Positions 1 to 36,776 are shown, counted from the stretch's first letter. The stretch is DNA of 36,776 nucleotides from a virus (IMGVR_UViG_2737471842_000006:1-36776), one strand, 5' to 3'. Made by a program: numbers and translations. Notes: generated from the sequence alone by a model not told the origin.

Positions 1-192
1 TCAGGAGCATTTCTGATTAACGCCACCGTTAAGAATCCACCCTTCAACAGCTTCACGAAGGTATGATTTGGGGTGGGTTCTGACTGGCTTCGGAAATCCG
101 TGCCGTTTGGTATAGTTCCAGATTGTCTGACGTGATGAAACACCGAGCTTGTTCATCACTTCTTTCTCAGGAATCAGGCTGGTATCGGTCAT
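1..192 (-). CDS. xis: AlpA/Xis-family small DNA-binding protein (putative excisionase); ORF runs off the window start, so C-terminus is missing
   Basis: Translation MTDTSLIPEKEVMNKLGVSSRQTIWNYTKRHGFPKPV resembles AlpA/excisionase helix-turn-helix proteins; sits at the far end of the leftward early operon where xis belongs; no stop codon before position 1. Confidence 0.5.
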   Translation of the reverse strand: MTDTSLIPEKEVMNKLGVSSRQTIWNYTKRHGFPKPVRTHPKSYLREAVEGWILNGGVNQKCS

Positions 193-269: not shown

Positions 270-614
270 TTAGTCCCTGCGTAGCTCGCTGATTCTTCTG
301 TAAGTCTCTGGTGCTTTGTTTCCGTGTATCTTCATTTCAGACTTCAACAGAGCAACGAGAGAATCCCATTCGTTGAGGATGCCTTTGAATGCCGGAACGC
401 GCTTTGCAACCTTGTCGAATGAATCTCTGATTTCTGGAATCTGCTCAACAAGTGCAACGCATCGCCGAAAGTCTGCTGCGTCATGTGGAGCGCCGAAGTG
501 ATGACCATAGATATTCTTTTTCAGGCCACATGCGATTGAGGCAAGAGTTGCGCTACTGATGCCGACATCGCCAGTTGATTGCCATTTCAAAACCTTCATA
601 GCCAAATCTGACAT
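270..614 (-). CDS. hypothetical early-left (ea region) protein, about 114 aa
   Basis: ORF 270..641; internal ATG at 614 is preceded by GGAG at 7 nt spacing (MSDLAMKVLKWQ...); no family recognised. Confidence 0.45.
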   Translation of the reverse strand: MSDLAMKVLKWQSTGDVGISSATLASIACGLKKNIYGHHFGAPHDAADFRRCVALVEQIPEIRDSFDKVAKRVPAFKGILNEWDSLVALLKSEMKIHGNKAPETYRRISELRRD

Positions 615-626
615 TTCTTGTCTCCA

Positions 627-652
627 ATAAAAAACCGCCATCAGGCGGCTTG
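627..652 (-). terminator. putative rho-independent terminator (minus strand)
   Basis: Minus-strand reading gives stem CCGCC/GGCGG with 4-nt loop followed by a T-run; lies between the Zn-ribbon gene and the next ea gene. Confidence 0.3.
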
Positions 653-714
653 GTGTTCTTTCAGTTCTTCAATTCGAATATTGGTTACATTGTTTTCATA
701 TATGAATAAATAAA

Positions 715-894
715 TTAGCTTTTTTCGTTGCCTTCGCGTTCTTTATTAATTTTGACAAAATCGTTTTTACCACGCTCTCCAAATGCGTCTTTAGAGTCGT
801 TGTATCCGCAATCGCAGCACACATAATCATCAGACCATCCACGCATTGTTTTTTCTTTTGCAATATTTCCAGAACCGCATTTTGGACAAGACAT
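715..894 (-). CDS. small zinc-ribbon protein (CPKC...CCDC), about 59 aa
   Basis: ORF 715..927; ATG at 894 preceded by GGAGG at 7 nt spacing; two Cys pairs MSCPKCGSG...YVCCDCGY. Confidence 0.45.
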   Translation of the reverse strand: MSCPKCGSGNIAKEKTMRGWSDDYVCCDCGYNDSKDAFGERGKNDFVKINKEREGNEKS

Positions 895-990
895 ATCACT
901 ACCTCCAAAGCATGAGTGAGATGACAACGTAACATTGATTGGAGATTAACAATAGATTGCTGATGTAAAAGATATGTATAAGCTTCGCTT

Positions 991-1542
991 TCAAAGTGGA
1001 GGCTCTGGTAGCGGCATCCAGTGGGTTACATTGCTAATCAGACCATATTCATTAGTTTGAGGATGGTTGCCGCTATCGTCTCCGTATTTAAGACTCTCCA
1101 TAAAGCCATAATGCCTATCCCCATTAACGCTCACAAAGCCGTAATAAGCTGATATAACGCCGATCTCACACGTAACCAGTAAAGGAAAACTAGTTCTCCA
1201 ATTTAGCTCGCCAATTACAGGCATTCGATCACTACAGCTTATCCAACCATCCGGAGTTACCGGCACTGGCTTGGCGGTATAAAGCGGTGTTATATCTGCC
1301 CGAAAATTACATGCTTTATGCAGCCGCACCCACCGTTCGACTTCTGCTTTGTCAGAATACATACCAGTGAACGTGTTATATTCACGGTCAATTTGCGTGA
1401 AGGTTACCTTCCACGCCACCGGCTCTGCTTCCAGCGATGCCAGCGCAATCCGTGCCAGTTCCATTTGTTCACCACGGGTAAGCCCGTTTTCAAGCGGGGA
1501 TTTAATGAACAATTCGATACGTTCTTTAGTGATAGTGCTCAT
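991..1542 (-). CDS. DUF551-type phage protein
   Basis: 183-aa ORF; C-terminal HWMPLPEPP motif typical of DUF551 phage proteins; AAGGAG RBS upstream of ATG at 1542. Confidence 0.6.
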   Translation of the reverse strand: MSTITKERIELFIKSPLENGLTRGEQMELARIALASLEAEPVAWKVTFTQIDREYNTFTGMYSDKAEVERWVRLHKACNFRADITPLYTAKPVPVTPDGWISCSDRMPVIGELNWRTSFPLLVTCEIGVISAYYGFVSVNGDRHYGFMESLKYGDDSGNHPQTNEYGLISNVTHWMPLPEPPL

Positions 1543-1543
1543 A

Positions 1544-2044
1544 TCACTCTCCTTTGATGCGAATGCCAGCGGCGCGGATTGCAGCGATGACTTCAGAAAC
1601 TTTGTATGCCATTACCGTTTGGTAATCATCGTGAAAATCTGTTCGATGAAGCATGCTGCTACGTTCTGGGAGTGATATTTCCCGTGCTTCTAGTTCTGCA
1701 ATGCGCTTCTCTGCGGCTTCCAGCTCAACGCGCAGCCTCCCAACCGTAAGTGCAATATCCTCGTTCTCCTGGTCGCGGCGTTTTATGTATTGCTGGTTTC
1801 TTTCCCGTTCATCCAGCAGTGCCTGCACTACTTCAGGGTTGAAAGCTGCGATATAACGAGCGTTGTTCTCTGCGTTTTTCTGTTCGTCGAATCCTGGCCA
1901 GTCGACAATATCTCCGTGATGATTATCACCTAGTGTGTGTACGGCGTACGTGCCGTATTTGCCCGGCGAAATAAATGCGACCCATTCACCCTGTGTTGCC
2001 TGCTTTGCTAACTCACGCAGTGCCTGATGGTCAATCTTGCTCAC
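1544..2044 (-). CDS. Ead/Ea22-like protein
   Basis: 166-aa ORF; N-terminal GEWVAF...NARYIAAFNPEVVQALLD domain plus C-terminal coiled coil as in Ea22-like proteins; GTG start preceded by AGGAGG and overlapping the upstream stop (GTGA). Confidence 0.6.
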   Translation of the reverse strand: MSKIDHQALRELAKQATQGEWVAFISPGKYGTYAVHTLGDNHHGDIVDWPGFDEQKNAENNARYIAAFNPEVVQALLDERERNQQYIKRRDQENEDIALTVGRLRVELEAAEKRIAELEAREISLPERSSMLHRTDFHDDYQTVMAYKVSEVIAAIRAAGIRIKGE

Positions 2045-2490
2045 TGGTTGCCTCCTTTGCGAAGCTCTGCGGCGAACTCGTTAAGTGATATGTAGCAATC
2101 TCCAAATGTTAACGAACCGCTCGACTGCATATGCTCCATAGCCATCTCCACGCCCTGCGCCCGTACTTCAACCAGGAATGCGTCGGTGGCTGGGGTTTCA
2201 GTAACATCATCTTCCCATTCGCTAAACTCCTCACGACAAAAGTCATTAAATTCCTTCTCAGATTGCTTAAGCGAGGTATTTTCAGCAGCCATCTTCGTGC
2301 ATTTAGCCTCAAGGTTATCAATCGTGATTCCAGCAGAACGACACTCCCGCAACGCCGTTTCCAGTTTTGATTCAAGTTCACCGAACTTACGGACAAGATA
2401 TTCAGCGTTTGTTTCGTTAACCTTTAAATCTCGTGGGATGCATTGACCTTTCAGAAATCCATCCATCTCAATTAGTGACATTTGTTTCAT
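2041..2490 (-). CDS. hypothetical coiled-coil protein
   Basis: 149-aa ORF translationally coupled to neighbours (ATGA overlap at 2487-2490, TGA/GTG overlap at 2041-2044); no family recognised. Confidence 0.5.
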
Positions 2491-2651
2491 TTCTTCCCAC
2501 TCCGCAACATCGCATTCAGATATTTGTTTTGATTTACTGACAGAAAAGAATTTCTCTTAAGCAATTCCTCTCTCGATGGCATTGGCTTTACGCGTTGGCG
2601 AATAATCATTTCTGCCGGAAGAATGCCGGGATTGTATGCAAGTCCTCTCAT
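2487..2651 (-). CDS. possible small ORF (about 54 aa) in the ea operon
   Basis: In-frame ATG preceded by GAGGAA at about 6 nt; stop overlaps the next start (ATGA); fills a gap in an otherwise tightly packed operon. Confidence 0.3.
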
Positions 2652-2661
2652 GGTAAATTCC

Positions 2662-2955
2662 TCAGTCATTACTGATAGCGCCATAACGTGAGCGGTAATT
2701 ACGCAGGCGCGGGTCAATTTCAGGGAAGTGGGTATATGTGGCTTTGCGGAATGGTCGGATTGATGTCTGGTAAATTCGCTCGCGTTCTTCTTTCTCTGCA
2801 AGCCATATACAGTGGCGAAATTCCTTTTCCTCTTTCGTTTCCTGCGGTAGAGACATTATCCGGTCGTAGTTTTTTCTGAATTTATCCAGCACCTCCGATA
2901 CGGAATTGCCGGAACAGCGGCGCACGTCGTCCGCACCATACAGAGGCGCTGGCAT
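2662..2955 (-). CDS. hypothetical protein, 97 aa
   Basis: ORF with AAGGA RBS 7 nt upstream of ATG at 2955; downstream of erf/ssb where P22 carries abc genes, but no similarity to them could be confirmed from memory. Confidence 0.5.
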
Positions 2956-2978: not shown

Positions 2979-3362
2979 TCAGAATGGGATGGAATCGTCG
3001 TATACAGGAGTGTTCTGCTGGTTACTACTTTGCCGCTGCGGGCCATTTCCTGAAGCTGCAAATCCAATCTTTGCATTCAGTAATTCAAGAGTGATTGATT
3101 GACCATTTTGCCCCTGATAAACATCAACCCTGATGTTTTCTCCGGTAATTTCCACAATTCCACCTTCAACAAGAACACTACGGTAGTAATCCGCTTGCGC
3201 TCCCGGCTTGGCAAATACAACGGCGCTGTAGTTTGTCCATTCTTTCTTTTTTGTCTGGCGATCGTAATACTGAACGCCAGCACGGATGTTGAATCCGATA
3301 TTTTCCCCGGCCTGAAACTCTCTTGCGGGCTTGTTTAGTCTTACAGTAATCGAATGTGCCAT
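2979..3362 (-). CDS. phage single-stranded DNA-binding protein (Ea10-like), 127 aa
   Basis: MAHSITVRL... ends in a Gly/Gln-rich linker and the acidic tip DDSIPF, the hallmark SSB C-terminal motif; start ATG overlaps the erf stop (TAATG). Confidence 0.6.
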   Translation of the reverse strand: MAHSITVRLNKPAREFQAGENIGFNIRAGVQYYDRQTKKKEWTNYSAVVFAKPGAQADYYRSVLVEGGIVEITGENIRVDVYQGQNGQSITLELLNAKIGFAASGNGPQRQSSNQQNTPVYDDSIPF

Positions 3363-3967
3363 TAAGCAGCCGCTCCTTCTAATTCGTCTCGTCTGATGTT
3401 GTAAACGTCCTGCGCTTTGTGCTGCTCCGGTGTGCCTTCGAGCATCTTCCACGCTTTGGCGAACGCCTGTTTAAGCTCTTCTACGGTGTTTTTCTGCATT
3501 GCTGCGTCAGTGAATGCTTTTAGAACCTGTTCAGGTGTAGGTGATGGTTTTGATTGCTTTGCTGCTGCGTTCTGCTGATGTTTATGCTCGTCGGTATCTG
3601 CATCTTTCGCATCATCAATGCCGAACAAACCATTTAGGCAATACTTGCGCGCATAAGAACTTGTAGCTCCAGTAACTTGTGCAGAATCCATTCCTTTCTT
3701 GCTTTCTTCCTCTCGTGCAAGAGCGGTTGCCGTATGACTGTTTTCGCCATCGGTAATAGTTGCCGTAGCTTTCACGTAATACCGATCACCAATCAACACA
3801 ACTTCATCGCTGATTGATAAAAACAGGCCATTCAGTAACGGCTTAACGCCTTCAAGAATGTCTTCGCAGCTTCTGTATTTATATTTGCCGAATGAGTTGT
3901 ACTGATTCTTTGGCGCGTTCAGATTCTCCTGAATAGCTGCCAGTCTTGCGTAAAATTCTTTGCTCAT
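3362..3967 (-). CDS. erf: Erf single-strand annealing recombinase
   Basis: Translation from MSKEFYARLAAIQENLNAPKNQYNSFGKYKYRSCEDILEGVKPLL closely matches remembered P22 Erf; about 200 aa from the ATG at 3967. Confidence 0.85.
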   Translation of the reverse strand: MSKEFYARLAAIQENLNAPKNQYNSFGKYKYRSCEDILEGVKPLLNGLFLSISDEVVLIGDRYYVKATATITDGENSHTATALAREEESKKGMDSAQVTGATSSYARKYCLNGLFGIDDAKDADTDEHKHQQNAAAKQSKPSPTPEQVLKAFTDAAMQKNTVEELKQAFAKAWKMLEGTPEQHKAQDVYNIRRDELEGAAA

Positions 3968-4068
3968 ATGATTGTTCTCAGAATGGACACGGCCCAAGGA
4001 AATAACGCTGATTTAATACTTCGACTCGGGACAAATTAAGGCATACCCGCATTCCTTCGCGGTCGCCA

Positions 4069-4227
4069 TTATGGCGATACCAGAGAGCTTTCTGCGTGTA
4101 CATGCGTCTCTGTAACTTGCTCTCCTTCACTGTGGTTGCAAGTGACATGAATATCTCCTTCGTTACCGATTAATTCTTTCATCTGACGAATGAATTCTTC
4201 GTCTGACCAGTTATCTGTAAAACTCAT
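4069..4227 (-). CDS. small ORF in the arf position (about 52 aa); an alternative overlapping frame 3978..4148 is equally possible
   Basis: ATG overlaps the kil stop (ATGA); the alternative frame has GGAG at 7 nt spacing; neither was in the ORF track (<60 aa). Confidence 0.25.
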   Translation of the reverse strand: MSFTDNWSDEEFIRQMKELIGNEGDIHVTCNHSEGEQVTETHVHAESSLVSP

Positions 4228-4578: not shown

Positions 4579-4827
4579 CTACTCTATTTCTTCTTCGAAT
4601 GATTTTATTAGTCGGTCAATAACATCATCCGTTTCAATATCATTTCCGTCTGATTGCTTTAATACATCTATTGATTCTGCAGCGGTAAATTCCATCGCTG
4701 TGAGAAACTCGACAATTGTACACTCAACGACATATCGTTCTTCATCTGTACGACATGAGATAAAAGAGCATTTAATTGCTGTTATTACTTTTTGTTTAAG
4801 CTCTGCAGGGTAATCAGTTTTTATCAT
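4579..4827 (-). CDS. hypothetical acidic protein, 82 aa
   Basis: ORF with GGAG RBS 6 nt upstream of ATG at 4827; first gene after the tL1-like terminator. Confidence 0.5.
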   Translation of the reverse strand: MIKTDYPAELKQKVITAIKCSFISCRTDEERYVVECTIVEFLTAMEFTAAESIDVLKQSDGNDIETDDVIDRLIKSFEEEIE

Positions 4828-32735: not shown

Positions 32736-32737
32736 AG

Positions 32738-32810
32738 TTGAAGCCCCAACTGCGGGAACAGTCAGGGCTTCGGTTGTCAGTAAATCCGTGGAGAAAAACC
32801 AACATGAATA
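32738..32810 (-). ncRNA. sar: possible sar antisense RNA across the arc-ant junction and ant ribosome-binding site
   Basis: Established P22 biology places a small antisense RNA here; the interval contains hairpin GAAGCCC...GGGCTTC; boundaries are approximate. Confidence 0.3.
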
Positions 32811-35669: not shown

Positions 35670-36776
35670 CTACTTGTTAAACCTGCACTCTATGTGTTTA
35701 TAAGTAAATGCAGATGCTAAGATCGTTATTGAAAGACAAATCACAGAGTATATTATTAACTGAGTTGTGTTTGTTTCAGACAGATTAACAAACTTAGAGG
35801 CTATTCTGTAAAATACATGCAGCACTGGTTGATGCAGTAAGTAAATGCTATAGCTAATTTCCCCTAAGAAAGCGATAGACGGAATGCTTAATAACCTTGG
35901 TTTTAGCACAACGCAAGACGCAAACATAAGTGATATCATGATAAATCGATAAAAGCTATATTGTTTTACATCGAAATAGAATGACATATAAAACAAAAAC
36001 GCAAAAACTATATATATAACTGCTCTAAGTGATGTTTTTTCTATGTTTATTTCTTTGATTTTTGCGCAAAGAGCCCCAGCTACAAAGTACGACCACAACA
36101 CTTTATCTTCATAGAAATCGTTGATCAATACAAAGCACCCAAAAGCAATTACCATGTACTTGAATTTTTTAGTATAGAGAGCAGTCGCTAAGAATGGGAT
36201 AGATGCATAAAACTTCCACTCATATGGGAGTGTCCACAATACTATATTTAAAGTAGCATCTCTATGTTCGCCCCAGTATAGCTCAGTTCCAAAAAAACCA
36301 AACCCAAATATTTTAAGTAATTGAGTGACAAATAAAGGAAGGTCTAATTTCCCTAACATCTGTGAAAAATATATTATAGATATTAAAGTAGCGGTAAATA
36401 GATATAATGGAACTAATCTCTTTATTCTTTTTGCGTAAAATGATGTAAAGTCTATTTTATTATTTGAAAGTATTTTTGAAGAGAACAGAAATCCAGTTAT
36501 GCAAAAAAATATCTGAACACCCAAGGCACCAGATTGGCTGAAAAGATAAAAGTTAGAGTAATCAATATTCTTAGTTTTTATCAACATATCACCAATGGCG
36601 TAAGCAGAGTGGTTGATGAAAACGGCGATACATGCAAAACCCCTGAGTCCTTCAATGTACTGAATTTTGCCCTGATCTGTAGACTTTCTAATGAAAATAG
36701 ATGTTGCCATTATTGGTACAGCAAGCATGACCAAATAGATGCAAAAGAAAGACAATGGGTAGTTATAAAGCGGCAT
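35670..36776 (-). CDS. integral-membrane acyltransferase (acyltransferase-3 / O-antigen acetylase family); start codon at the last three bases of the window
   Basis: 368-aa ORF, multi-pass hydrophobic, strongly AT-rich; resembles OafA/Oac-type O-acetyltransferases; sits where P22-like phages keep serotype-conversion genes. Confidence 0.7.
   Translation of the reverse strand: MPLYNYPLSFFCIYLVMLAVPIMATSIFIRKSTDQGKIQYIEGLRGFACIAVFINHSAYAIGDMLIKTKNIDYSNFYLFSQSGALGVQIFFCITGFLFSSKILSNNKIDFTSFYAKRIKRLVPLYLFTATLISIIYFSQMLGKLDLPLFVTQLLKIFGFGFFGTELYWGEHRDATLNIVLWTLPYEWKFYASIPFLATALYTKKFKYMVIAFGCFVLINDFYEDKVLWSYFVAGALCAKIKEINIEKTSLRAVIYIVFAFLFYMSFYFDVKQYSFYRFIMISLMFASCVVLKPRLLSIPSIAFLGEISYSIYLLHQPVLHVFYRIASKFVNLSETNTTQLIIYSVICLSITILASAFTYKHIECRFNK

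Follow-up and report, generated by a model that had tools for sequence, protein, structure and literature searches.

What do the small genes that separate erf and ssb from xis do in a P22-like phage, and do they function as one block? We addressed this question for positions 270-2955 of IMGVR_UViG_2737471842_000006, a viral sequence of 36,776 nucleotides (nt; hereinafter, the window) that as a whole represents a P22-like (Lederbergvirus-type) coliphage, with IME10 and Sf101 as the nearest relatives. The listing of open reading frames (ORFs) and direct reading of the strand revealed seven consecutive minus-strand ORFs inside this region, denoted g1 to g7 here in the order in which they are read, and confirmed their placement between erf/ssb and xis in the first-pass annotation, which had been made from the sequence alone. 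The reading that we favor, with a probability of roughly 0.75, is that a P22-like temperate coliphage carries here the distal portion of its leftward early (PL) operon, which is colinear with the abc2-to-xis 'ea' region of P22 and consists of four units. The first unit would be the end of a recombination module, in which Abc2 (g1) is predicted to bind RecC and to reprogram RecBCD in favor of Erf/SSB recombination, followed by the gene for a DUF2737 protein (g2). The second is a hypervariable core, g3 to g5, apparently coupled translationally to the first; within it, g3 is a candidate inhibitor that would bind and block an abortive nuclease of the OLD type. The RecBCD-manipulating genes of the phage itself, for example, the Gp33 homolog encoded upstream of erf, would activate such a nuclease. 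The third appears to comprise the strongly conserved zinc-ribbon gene eaG (g6) followed by a putative intrinsic terminator, and the fourth would be g7, a presence/absence cassette that fills the eaC slot between two related terminator-like hairpins.

Four proposed units in a lambdoid mosaic

The division into units emerges from a comparison, by tblastn and blastn, of 80 IMG/VR loci that encode EaG. The median protein identities of the flanking genes in these loci (99% for Erf, 97% for Abc2, 94% for DUF2737 and 97% for EaG) far exceed those of the core (47% for g3, 47% for g4 and 35% for g5), and the DUF2737 gene and eaG lie between 0.7 and 3.8 kb apart. The description of the region as a variable accessory slot in the first-pass annotation is thus apt for the g3-g5 core set against flanks at 94-99%, but does not extend to a single, tightly coupled unit of seven unknowns. 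The g7 gene is present in 29 of the 80 loci, at 96-99% identity, and the homology breakpoints cluster at position 625 (where hairpin 1 ends and homology to most of the related loci stops) and at 238-269 (around the second hairpin), which delineates g7 as a discrete presence/absence cassette.

The junctions between the genes show a similar partition. A Shine-Dalgarno sequence of the GGAG/AGGA type is located 7-9 nt ahead of each of the seven starts, as implied by the consensus ribosome-binding sites (RBS) that had been described for these genes. The gap between ssb and g1 is 23 nt long and that between g1 and g2 is 10 nt; g2 and g3 overlap in an ATGA and g3 and g4 in a GTGA, and a single nucleotide separates g4 from g5. 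Wider gaps follow, namely, 96 nt between g5 and g6, 100 nt between g6 and g7, and 77 nt between g7 and xis. Tight coupling, which had been ascribed to all seven genes, accordingly applies to g1-g5, whereas g6 and g7 are set apart by spacers of about 100 nt and by the terminator-like hairpins. By general analogy, the overlapping or abutting stop and start codons would couple the translation of g1 through g5. The proposed leftward transcription from PL is likewise modeled on the early-left operons of lambda and P22, in which case an N-like antiterminator would let RNA polymerase pass both hairpins into g7 and xis.

The exact arrangement of the region was found neither in phage records (best coverage, 65%) nor in complete E. 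coli genomes (best coverage, 75%), and pieces of it are present in 3774 of the 5426 E. coli genomes. The region is an ordinary lambdoid mosaic, in which catalogued gene families appear in a new combination. Recombination at the conserved flanks, at the terminator repeats and within coding segments for common N-terminal 'leaders' would exchange genes between phages. As a whole, this is textbook mosaicism that changes little; what remains of interest is the pairing of a Gp33-type protein with an Oad2-like protein and the large, unnamed and structurally novel family to which g7 belongs.

The coordinates of the seven genes, the spacer, the hairpins and the adjoining genes are collected in Table 1. 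Upstream, on the same strand, the window encodes a CI/C2-type repressor, an N-like antiterminator, a protein of an 'anti-restriction' PHROG, cIII, kil, the Gp33-like ORF, erf and ssb. The 'anti-restriction' gene is an 82-aa ORF (4579-4827, minus strand) located between cIII and the N-like gene, with a full-length match to phrog_14587 ('anti-restriction protein', E-value 5e-48); it represents a further early-left accessory gene outside 270-2955. Elsewhere in the window, a sar antisense RNA at 32736-32803 on the minus strand (Rfam RF00262, 95.6 bits) indicates the presence of a P22-type immI (ant) region, and an ORF for a 368-aa O-antigen acetyltransferase-like protein (35670-36776, minus strand; phrog_3333 and phrog_6705), the ATG of which lies in the final bases of the window, suggests a serotype-converting phage similar to Sf101.

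Table 1. Features of the region between the Gp33-like ORF and the left end of the window, from left to right in window coordinates
Feature	Coordinates	Strand	Size	Assignment and remarks
AlpA/excisionase (xis)-like gene	1-192	-		Left boundary; phrog_66, weak PF05930; annotated as AlpA family regulator in Sf101
Terminator-like hairpin 2	207-233 (hairpin 233-214)	-		3' of g7; closes the g7 cassette
g7	270-614	-	114 aa	All-helical; phage 434 'ORF114' family; eaC slot
Terminator-like hairpin 1	625-651 (hairpin 651-632 and T tract)	-		3' of eaG; also module boundary
g6	715-894	-	59 aa	EaG; CxxC...CxxC zinc ribbon
Spacer between g5 and eaG	895-990	-	96 nt	Nearly invariant
g5	991-1542	-	183 aa	EaA-like protein, DUF551
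g4	1544-2044	-	166 aa	Ead/Ea22-family protein; GTG start
g3	2041-2490	-	149 aa	EaE/Oad2-family protein
g2	2487-2651	-	54 aa	DUF2737 protein
g1	2662-2955	-	97 aa	Abc2, anti-RecBCD protein 2; functional end of the Erf/SSB/Abc2 recombination module
SSB-like gene	2979-3362	-		DDSIPF tail; upstream flank
erf	3362-3967	-		PF04404 (E-value 2.1e-44), phrog_44
Gp33-like ORF	4069-4227	-	52 aa	Upstream of erf; 46/52 residues identical to HK446 gp33; phrog_2123

Abc2, DUF2737 and the hypervariable core

The g1 protein matches PF11043 over the full length (residues 1-97 on profile positions 1-97; 209 bits against a cut-off of 25; E-value 8.7e-63) and belongs to phrog_656, 'abc2 anti-RecBCD'. It is equal in length to P22 Abc2 (PDB 8b1t_A and 8b1u), with 88 of the 97 residues identical; in comparison with the P22 protein resolved on E. 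coli RecBCD (8B1T/8B1U, PMC9836394), the nine substitutions are concentrated mostly in the C-terminal third. As in P22, the gene sits beside erf, with erf and the ssb-like gene immediately upstream. Judging by this homology, g1 is Abc2. In the structural study of the P22 protein (Wilkinson et al. 2022, PMC9836394), Abc2 docks on those domains of RecC that recognize Chi, so that RecBCD is co-opted instead of being blocked; RecC binding along with an altered Chi response of RecBCD can be predicted for g1 from this precedent. In a 2025 survey, the lambdoid 'Rec module' comprises the annealing protein, SSB and Abc2 (PMC12315714).

The next gene, g2, encodes a DUF2737 protein (PF10930, positions 1-53 of 53; 105 bits against a cut-off of 25; E-value 1.5e-30) that is equivalent to P22 orf56 and HK97 gp38. 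The DUF2737 gene is located downstream of abc2 in 41 of 41 related loci, with one extra gene in between in 15 of these, and the taxon distributions of the two families among phage records are nearly identical (225 records for Abc2 and 245 for DUF2737). This unbroken linkage and the matching distribution suggest that DUF2737 belongs functionally to the Abc2/Erf module; we hypothesize that it works together with Abc2, in which case it would be a hitherto unrecognized member of the P22-type recombination/RecBCD-hijack module. Thus, two of the three ORFs that had been left unassigned in the first-pass annotation have clear Pfam families, and its statement that none of the genes could be assigned a function is wrong; g1 matches a known RecBCD hijacker, and g3 is a relative of Oad2.

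The Pfam scan detected no family for g3. The protein aligns exactly on gp27 (Oad2) of phage HK446 (tblastn, 100% coverage, 55% identity, E-value 4e-45; 100 of 181 positions identical in BLASTP, E-value 1e-56). The alignment includes variable segments, at about residues 67-98 and 113-140, and between them conserved parts, namely, the 66 N-terminal residues, which are almost identical in the two proteins, a 15-residue motif and an LRKGGNQ tail, both of which are common to g3 and Oad2; g3 differs in the lack of two insertions and in a distinct C-terminal subdomain. Residues 1-43 of g3 are also found, with identities of 70-98%, on proteins that differ in the remainder (tblastn). Both genes lie directly downstream of the DUF2737 gene in a stretch that starts with abc2, a position that is seen in the gene maps of HK446, HK75 and P22; in HK446, a further gene, missing in the window, separates abc2 from the DUF2737 gene. 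On the basis of the alignment and this context, g3 is assigned to the EaE/Oad2 family.

The functional lead comes from a preprint (bioRxiv 10.64898/2026.07.10.737580, unreviewed, July 2026) in which Oad2, that is, HK446 gp27, is reported to bind the P2 OLD nuclease and to block both its toxicity and its defense activity. In the same work, Oad2 is described as related to P22 EaE, a 54% identical homolog from HK75 fails to inhibit P2 OLD, and HK446 gp33 is reported as a trigger of P2 OLD. The identity between gp27 and HK75_28 computed here is 54%, the figure given in the preprint, which confirms the mapping of Oad2 to gp27. Like HK446, the window phage encodes a Gp33-type OLD trigger along with the Oad2-family protein, and the variable segments of g3-type proteins may be directed, from one protein to the next, against distinct immune nucleases of the OLD family (ABC ATPase-TOPRIM). 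The co-occurrence of a Gp33-type trigger and a divergent Oad2-family protein in one phage provides a natural test case for inhibitor specificity and could show which part of the protein sets it. The Gp33-like ORF overlaps, by 80 nt and in another frame, a 56-aa ORF (3978-4148, minus strand), and both ORFs match PHROGs labelled 'recombinase' (phrog_2123 and phrog_1723).

The remaining core proteins, g4 and g5, are themselves composite. The g4 protein scores 119 bits against PF13935 (cut-off 27), with the N-terminal and coiled-coil signature of the family, is 67% identical to P22 EaD across the coiled coil (residues 64-120), and consists of an N-terminal domain, the coiled coil and a short C-terminal domain unlike that of lambda Ea22. 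A search of PDB sequences yielded chance matches only at E<=1, and the solved C-terminal domain of lambda Ea22 was not matched, which indicates that g4 does not contain this domain. The g5 protein begins with an N-terminal leader of 40 residues, continues with a small domain of the alpha/beta type and ends in DUF551 (PF04448, scored at 44 bits with a cut-off of 22). In the alignment with P22 EaA, 38 residues of the 40-residue leader are identical and the identity over DUF551 is 33%; the leader recurs on DUF550 and DUF550-DUF551 proteins as well. In the AlphaFold2 model of g5, the predicted local distance difference test score (pLDDT) is 65-89 for residues 1-90 and about 27 for the DUF551 part. 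The zinc-ribbon, DUF551, Ea22-like and coiled-coil labels assigned before any database search are all correct.

Given that Ea22 of lambda and of Shiga toxin (Stx) phages favors lysogeny (PMC10834534, PMC7093339), g4 probably has a similar pro-lysogenic role, by analogy and despite the different C-terminal domain. One could go further and propose that the genes after abc2 are, like those of the lambda exo-xis region, modulators of lysis-lysogeny, induction and host physiology that are not involved in immunity. The common position, the shared Ead/Ea22 family and the effects of the lambda/Stx region on lysogenization and induction all fit this proposal, as does the presence of DUF551 in YfdS of the cryptic prophage CPS-53, the gene cluster of which inhibits replication initiation when overexpressed. 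It is, however, at odds with the lack of homologs of lambda orf60a, orf61, orf63, orf73 and ea8.5 in this region, with the missing Ea22 C-terminal domain in g4, and with the occurrence of g7 relatives (see below) in conjugative elements and megaplasmids, which make no lysis-lysogeny decision. We regard it as unlikely, albeit with an appreciable chance of being right.

The eaG gene and the g7 cassette

Over g6 and the intergenic stretch that follows it, the nucleotide identity with the eaG region of P22 is 98%; the protein belongs to phrog_2945 and is 95-100% conserved in the 80 loci. By this measure, g6 is the ortholog of P22 EaG. Restriction alleviation of the Lar type was considered for this zinc-ribbon protein and rejected: the PF14354 score of 23.0 bits is below the threshold of 28.6, with just the CxxC...CxxC part aligned, and BLASTP against the Lar-family protein of a related prophage (L133), in which Lar and Eag are encoded by separate genes, aligned only 15 residues (E-value 0.015). 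The NCBIfam matches of g6 are sub-threshold zinc-ribbon hits only. The spacer that separates g5 from eaG is extremely stable: 79 copies from related loci collapse into 19 distinct sequences of 130 nt with almost no change within the spacer itself, for which no significant fold is predicted (z = -0.31). The spacer holds a putative hydrophobic 31-aa ORF (899-994), which starts with TTG and overlaps the stop of g5; with so little variation, the spacer may be coding, may be a regulatory site or may simply be of recent ancestry.

In the terminator scan, hairpin 1 has an 8-bp stem and a T-rich tail, and the two hairpins form a direct repeat (81% identity over 26 nt, 207-232 vs 625-650). In P22 (NC_002371; locus L132, 6439-6459), an element identical to hairpin 1 is annotated as terminating the antisense 'aI' RNA, which starts inside eaC. 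The aI promoter of P22 maps within eaC and is therefore presumably absent from the window, where g7 replaces that gene.

The protein encoded between the two hairpins, g7, belongs to phrog_1229, a PHROG without a functional label, shares 96.5% identity with phage 434 ORF114, and gave no match in Pfam, NCBIfam or PADLOC. The AlphaFold2 model is all-helical, with a pLDDT of 93.6, and no PDB neighbor was found for it. A profile search over 1.84 billion cluster representatives shows that the g7 family is large, with 2445 clusters at 50% identity for E<=1e-3 and 432 for E<=1e-10, none of the members having a Pfam domain or an informative name. Eight residues are invariant in the family (W11, S20, P43, D45, D48, R51, C52 and W83), and three more are nearly so (G18, S21 and G30).

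Genome scans with a family alignment detected relatives in Proteobacteria, Chloroflexota, Actinobacteria and Acidobacteriota; other members are found in Vibrio phages, in actinophages and on 109 Pseudomonas megaplasmids. The relatives include a gene located between kil and gemA/mor in a Mu-like prophage, one on a phage-like contig that also encodes a DEAD helicase and an N6/N4 methylase, and one in a conjugative element alongside genes for MobA/VirB4 and an Mrr_N-methylase; across 36 distant loci, the neighbors encode RadC (five times), Mu Gp11_C, GemA, DNA methylases, YopX, dUTPase, NADAR and DUF4326. Such a distribution speaks for a function when the element enters a new cell as opposed to lambdoid-specific development, and our hypothesis is that g7 is an establishment or anti-defense factor. 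The family is very widespread in mobile elements, is named by no curated library and resembles no solved structure; once its partner is identified, thousands of hypothetical proteins would be annotated together.

Several potential leads on g7 were discarded. A conserved partner gene is ruled out because the neighbors of similar size in distant mobile elements are not homologous to each other; a relationship with P22 EaC, which occupies the same slot, is ruled out by an hhalign probability of 0.1%; and the apparent links to DUF550/MazZ-like pyrophosphohydrolases (PF04447) turned out to be in-frame chimeras, g7 itself having no Pfam match. In these chimeras (P0015, P0029, P0051 and P0063), parts of g7 are joined to DUF550 (PF04447) or Ea22-like neighbors; they appear to be recombination scars, which place g7-like sequence under the PF04447 label and hence may mislead domain-based annotation. 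Two further contexts were noted: one Dehalococcoidia genome (OZ240223.1) carries three g7-like copies (L097, L100 and L106), each the C-terminal half of a protein of about 235 aa, and one representative (P0156) is a fusion of the g7-like domain with an HD domain-containing CCA-adding enzyme.

Weighing the alternatives against known systems

The most far-reaching version of the anti-defense hypothesis is that the whole block is an island in which each of the seven proteins neutralizes a different host immune system. Abc2 targets RecBCD, the g3 family includes an OLD inhibitor, the variable core between conserved flanks is the signature of the counter-defense 'accessory regions' of Silas et al., and g7 relatives reside in early or leading regions among RadC, DNA methylases, GemA and YopX. 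All this would be expected of an island; still, the published record of the Ea22 family is one of developmental factors that promote lysogeny, and eaG, the DUF2737 gene and g7 are highly conserved (94-99%), as opposed to the fast diversification expected of arms-race genes. Furthermore, none of the seven sequences is present in the text supplementary files of the two Silas et al. papers, peptides of g2-g7 included. On balance, we find an island of seven immune antagonists rather improbable, and the host-takeover or anti-defense functions envisaged for the block in the first pass are retained only for Abc2 (RecBCD) and, at the family level, for EaE/Oad2 (anti-OLD), the Ea22-type protein being a likely lysis-lysogeny modulator. 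The boldest proposal concerns g7: the family, structurally novel and carried with its SS...PxDxxDxxRC...W pattern in first-expressed regions across many phyla, might be a general establishment/anti-defense factor with a conserved host target; as a lesser addition, the variable segments of EaE/Oad2 proteins might be OLD-family specificity cassettes. We offer it as a speculation, with the odds clearly against it.

That g7 could instead be a moron, i.e., a cassette expressed in the prophage from its own promoter that helps the lysogen, for example, through superinfection exclusion or defense, is suggested by its discrete presence/absence pattern in the 29 of 80 loci, the 96-99% identity and the flanking terminator-like hairpins. 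The 615-714 interval contains no sigma-70-like promoter (a weak indication, from a consensus scan), the RBS and start-codon context of g7 is that of P22 eaC, in line with membership in the PL operon, and PADLOC does not recognize the protein, so that a moron is quite unlikely. Finally, the notion that most of the small genes are dispensable mosaic filler, kept by linkage and recombination and lacking a specific host target, would account for the extreme mosaicism, the in-frame chimeras of neighboring genes in databases and an arrangement found in no genome, but is hardly compatible with intact ORFs that have good ribosome-binding sites and translational coupling, with 94-99% conservation of eaG, DUF2737 and g7 across E. 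coli, Shigella and Salmonella phages, or with the invariant residues that the g7 family maintains across phyla.

The four-unit reading of an early-left operon has its own weak points. The terminator-like sites do not exceed shuffled expectation (7 found vs 5.0 expected), and promoter and terminator calls alike are from consensus scans only. The 80 loci were picked via eaG, which biases the comparison towards close relatives. No link between g2, g5, g6 or g7 and any activity emerges from their sequences, NCBIfam having been unhelpful and PADLOC giving no match for any of the seven proteins; a literature search on the P22 ea gene names returned nothing relevant. As for g3, it is only 55% identical to Oad2, the differences fall in the variable segments, and the inactive HK75 homolog is equally distant from Oad2, such that anti-OLD activity is a family-level hypothesis based on one unreviewed preprint. 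Our estimates for this protein are modest for that reason: neutralization of P2 OLD itself is doubtful, and neutralization of some member of the OLD-type immune nuclease family, although easier to envisage, falls somewhat short of an even chance.

Three of the closest known systems concern the region as a whole. In the accessory regions described by Silas et al. (10.1101/2023.04.06.535777), variable genes likewise lie between conserved flanks and adjoin the counter-defense gene abc2, which served as a control gene in that work. The exo-xis region of lambda (PMC10834534, PMC7093339) is equivalent in position, since it fills the interval from the recombination genes as far as xis. The Ead_Ea22 signature, N-terminal part and coiled coil, is present in g4, but the C-terminal domain of g4 is different, and the other exo-xis genes of lambda are absent from the window. 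The closest parallel is P22 (NC_002371), with the order abc2-orf56-eaE-orf45-eaF-eaD-eaI-eaA-eaG-terminator-eaC-xis. The window is colinear with P22 and in the same orientation from erf to xis, but with fewer genes: orf45, eaF and eaI are absent, and abc1 is replaced by the SSB-like gene. The identity is about 90% for Abc2, about 75% for orf56/DUF2737 and 98%, at the nucleotide level, for eaG with the terminator and the RBS. Within the core, by contrast, g3 has only the central motif in common with EaE, g4 shares the coiled coil with EaD, and g5 shares the leader and DUF551 with EaA. Beyond the core, the sequence remains homologous to that of P22 across eaG, the hairpin, the RBS and the opening bases of the following ORF. 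The homology stops there, the eaC slot of P22 being filled, in the window, by the unrelated g7.

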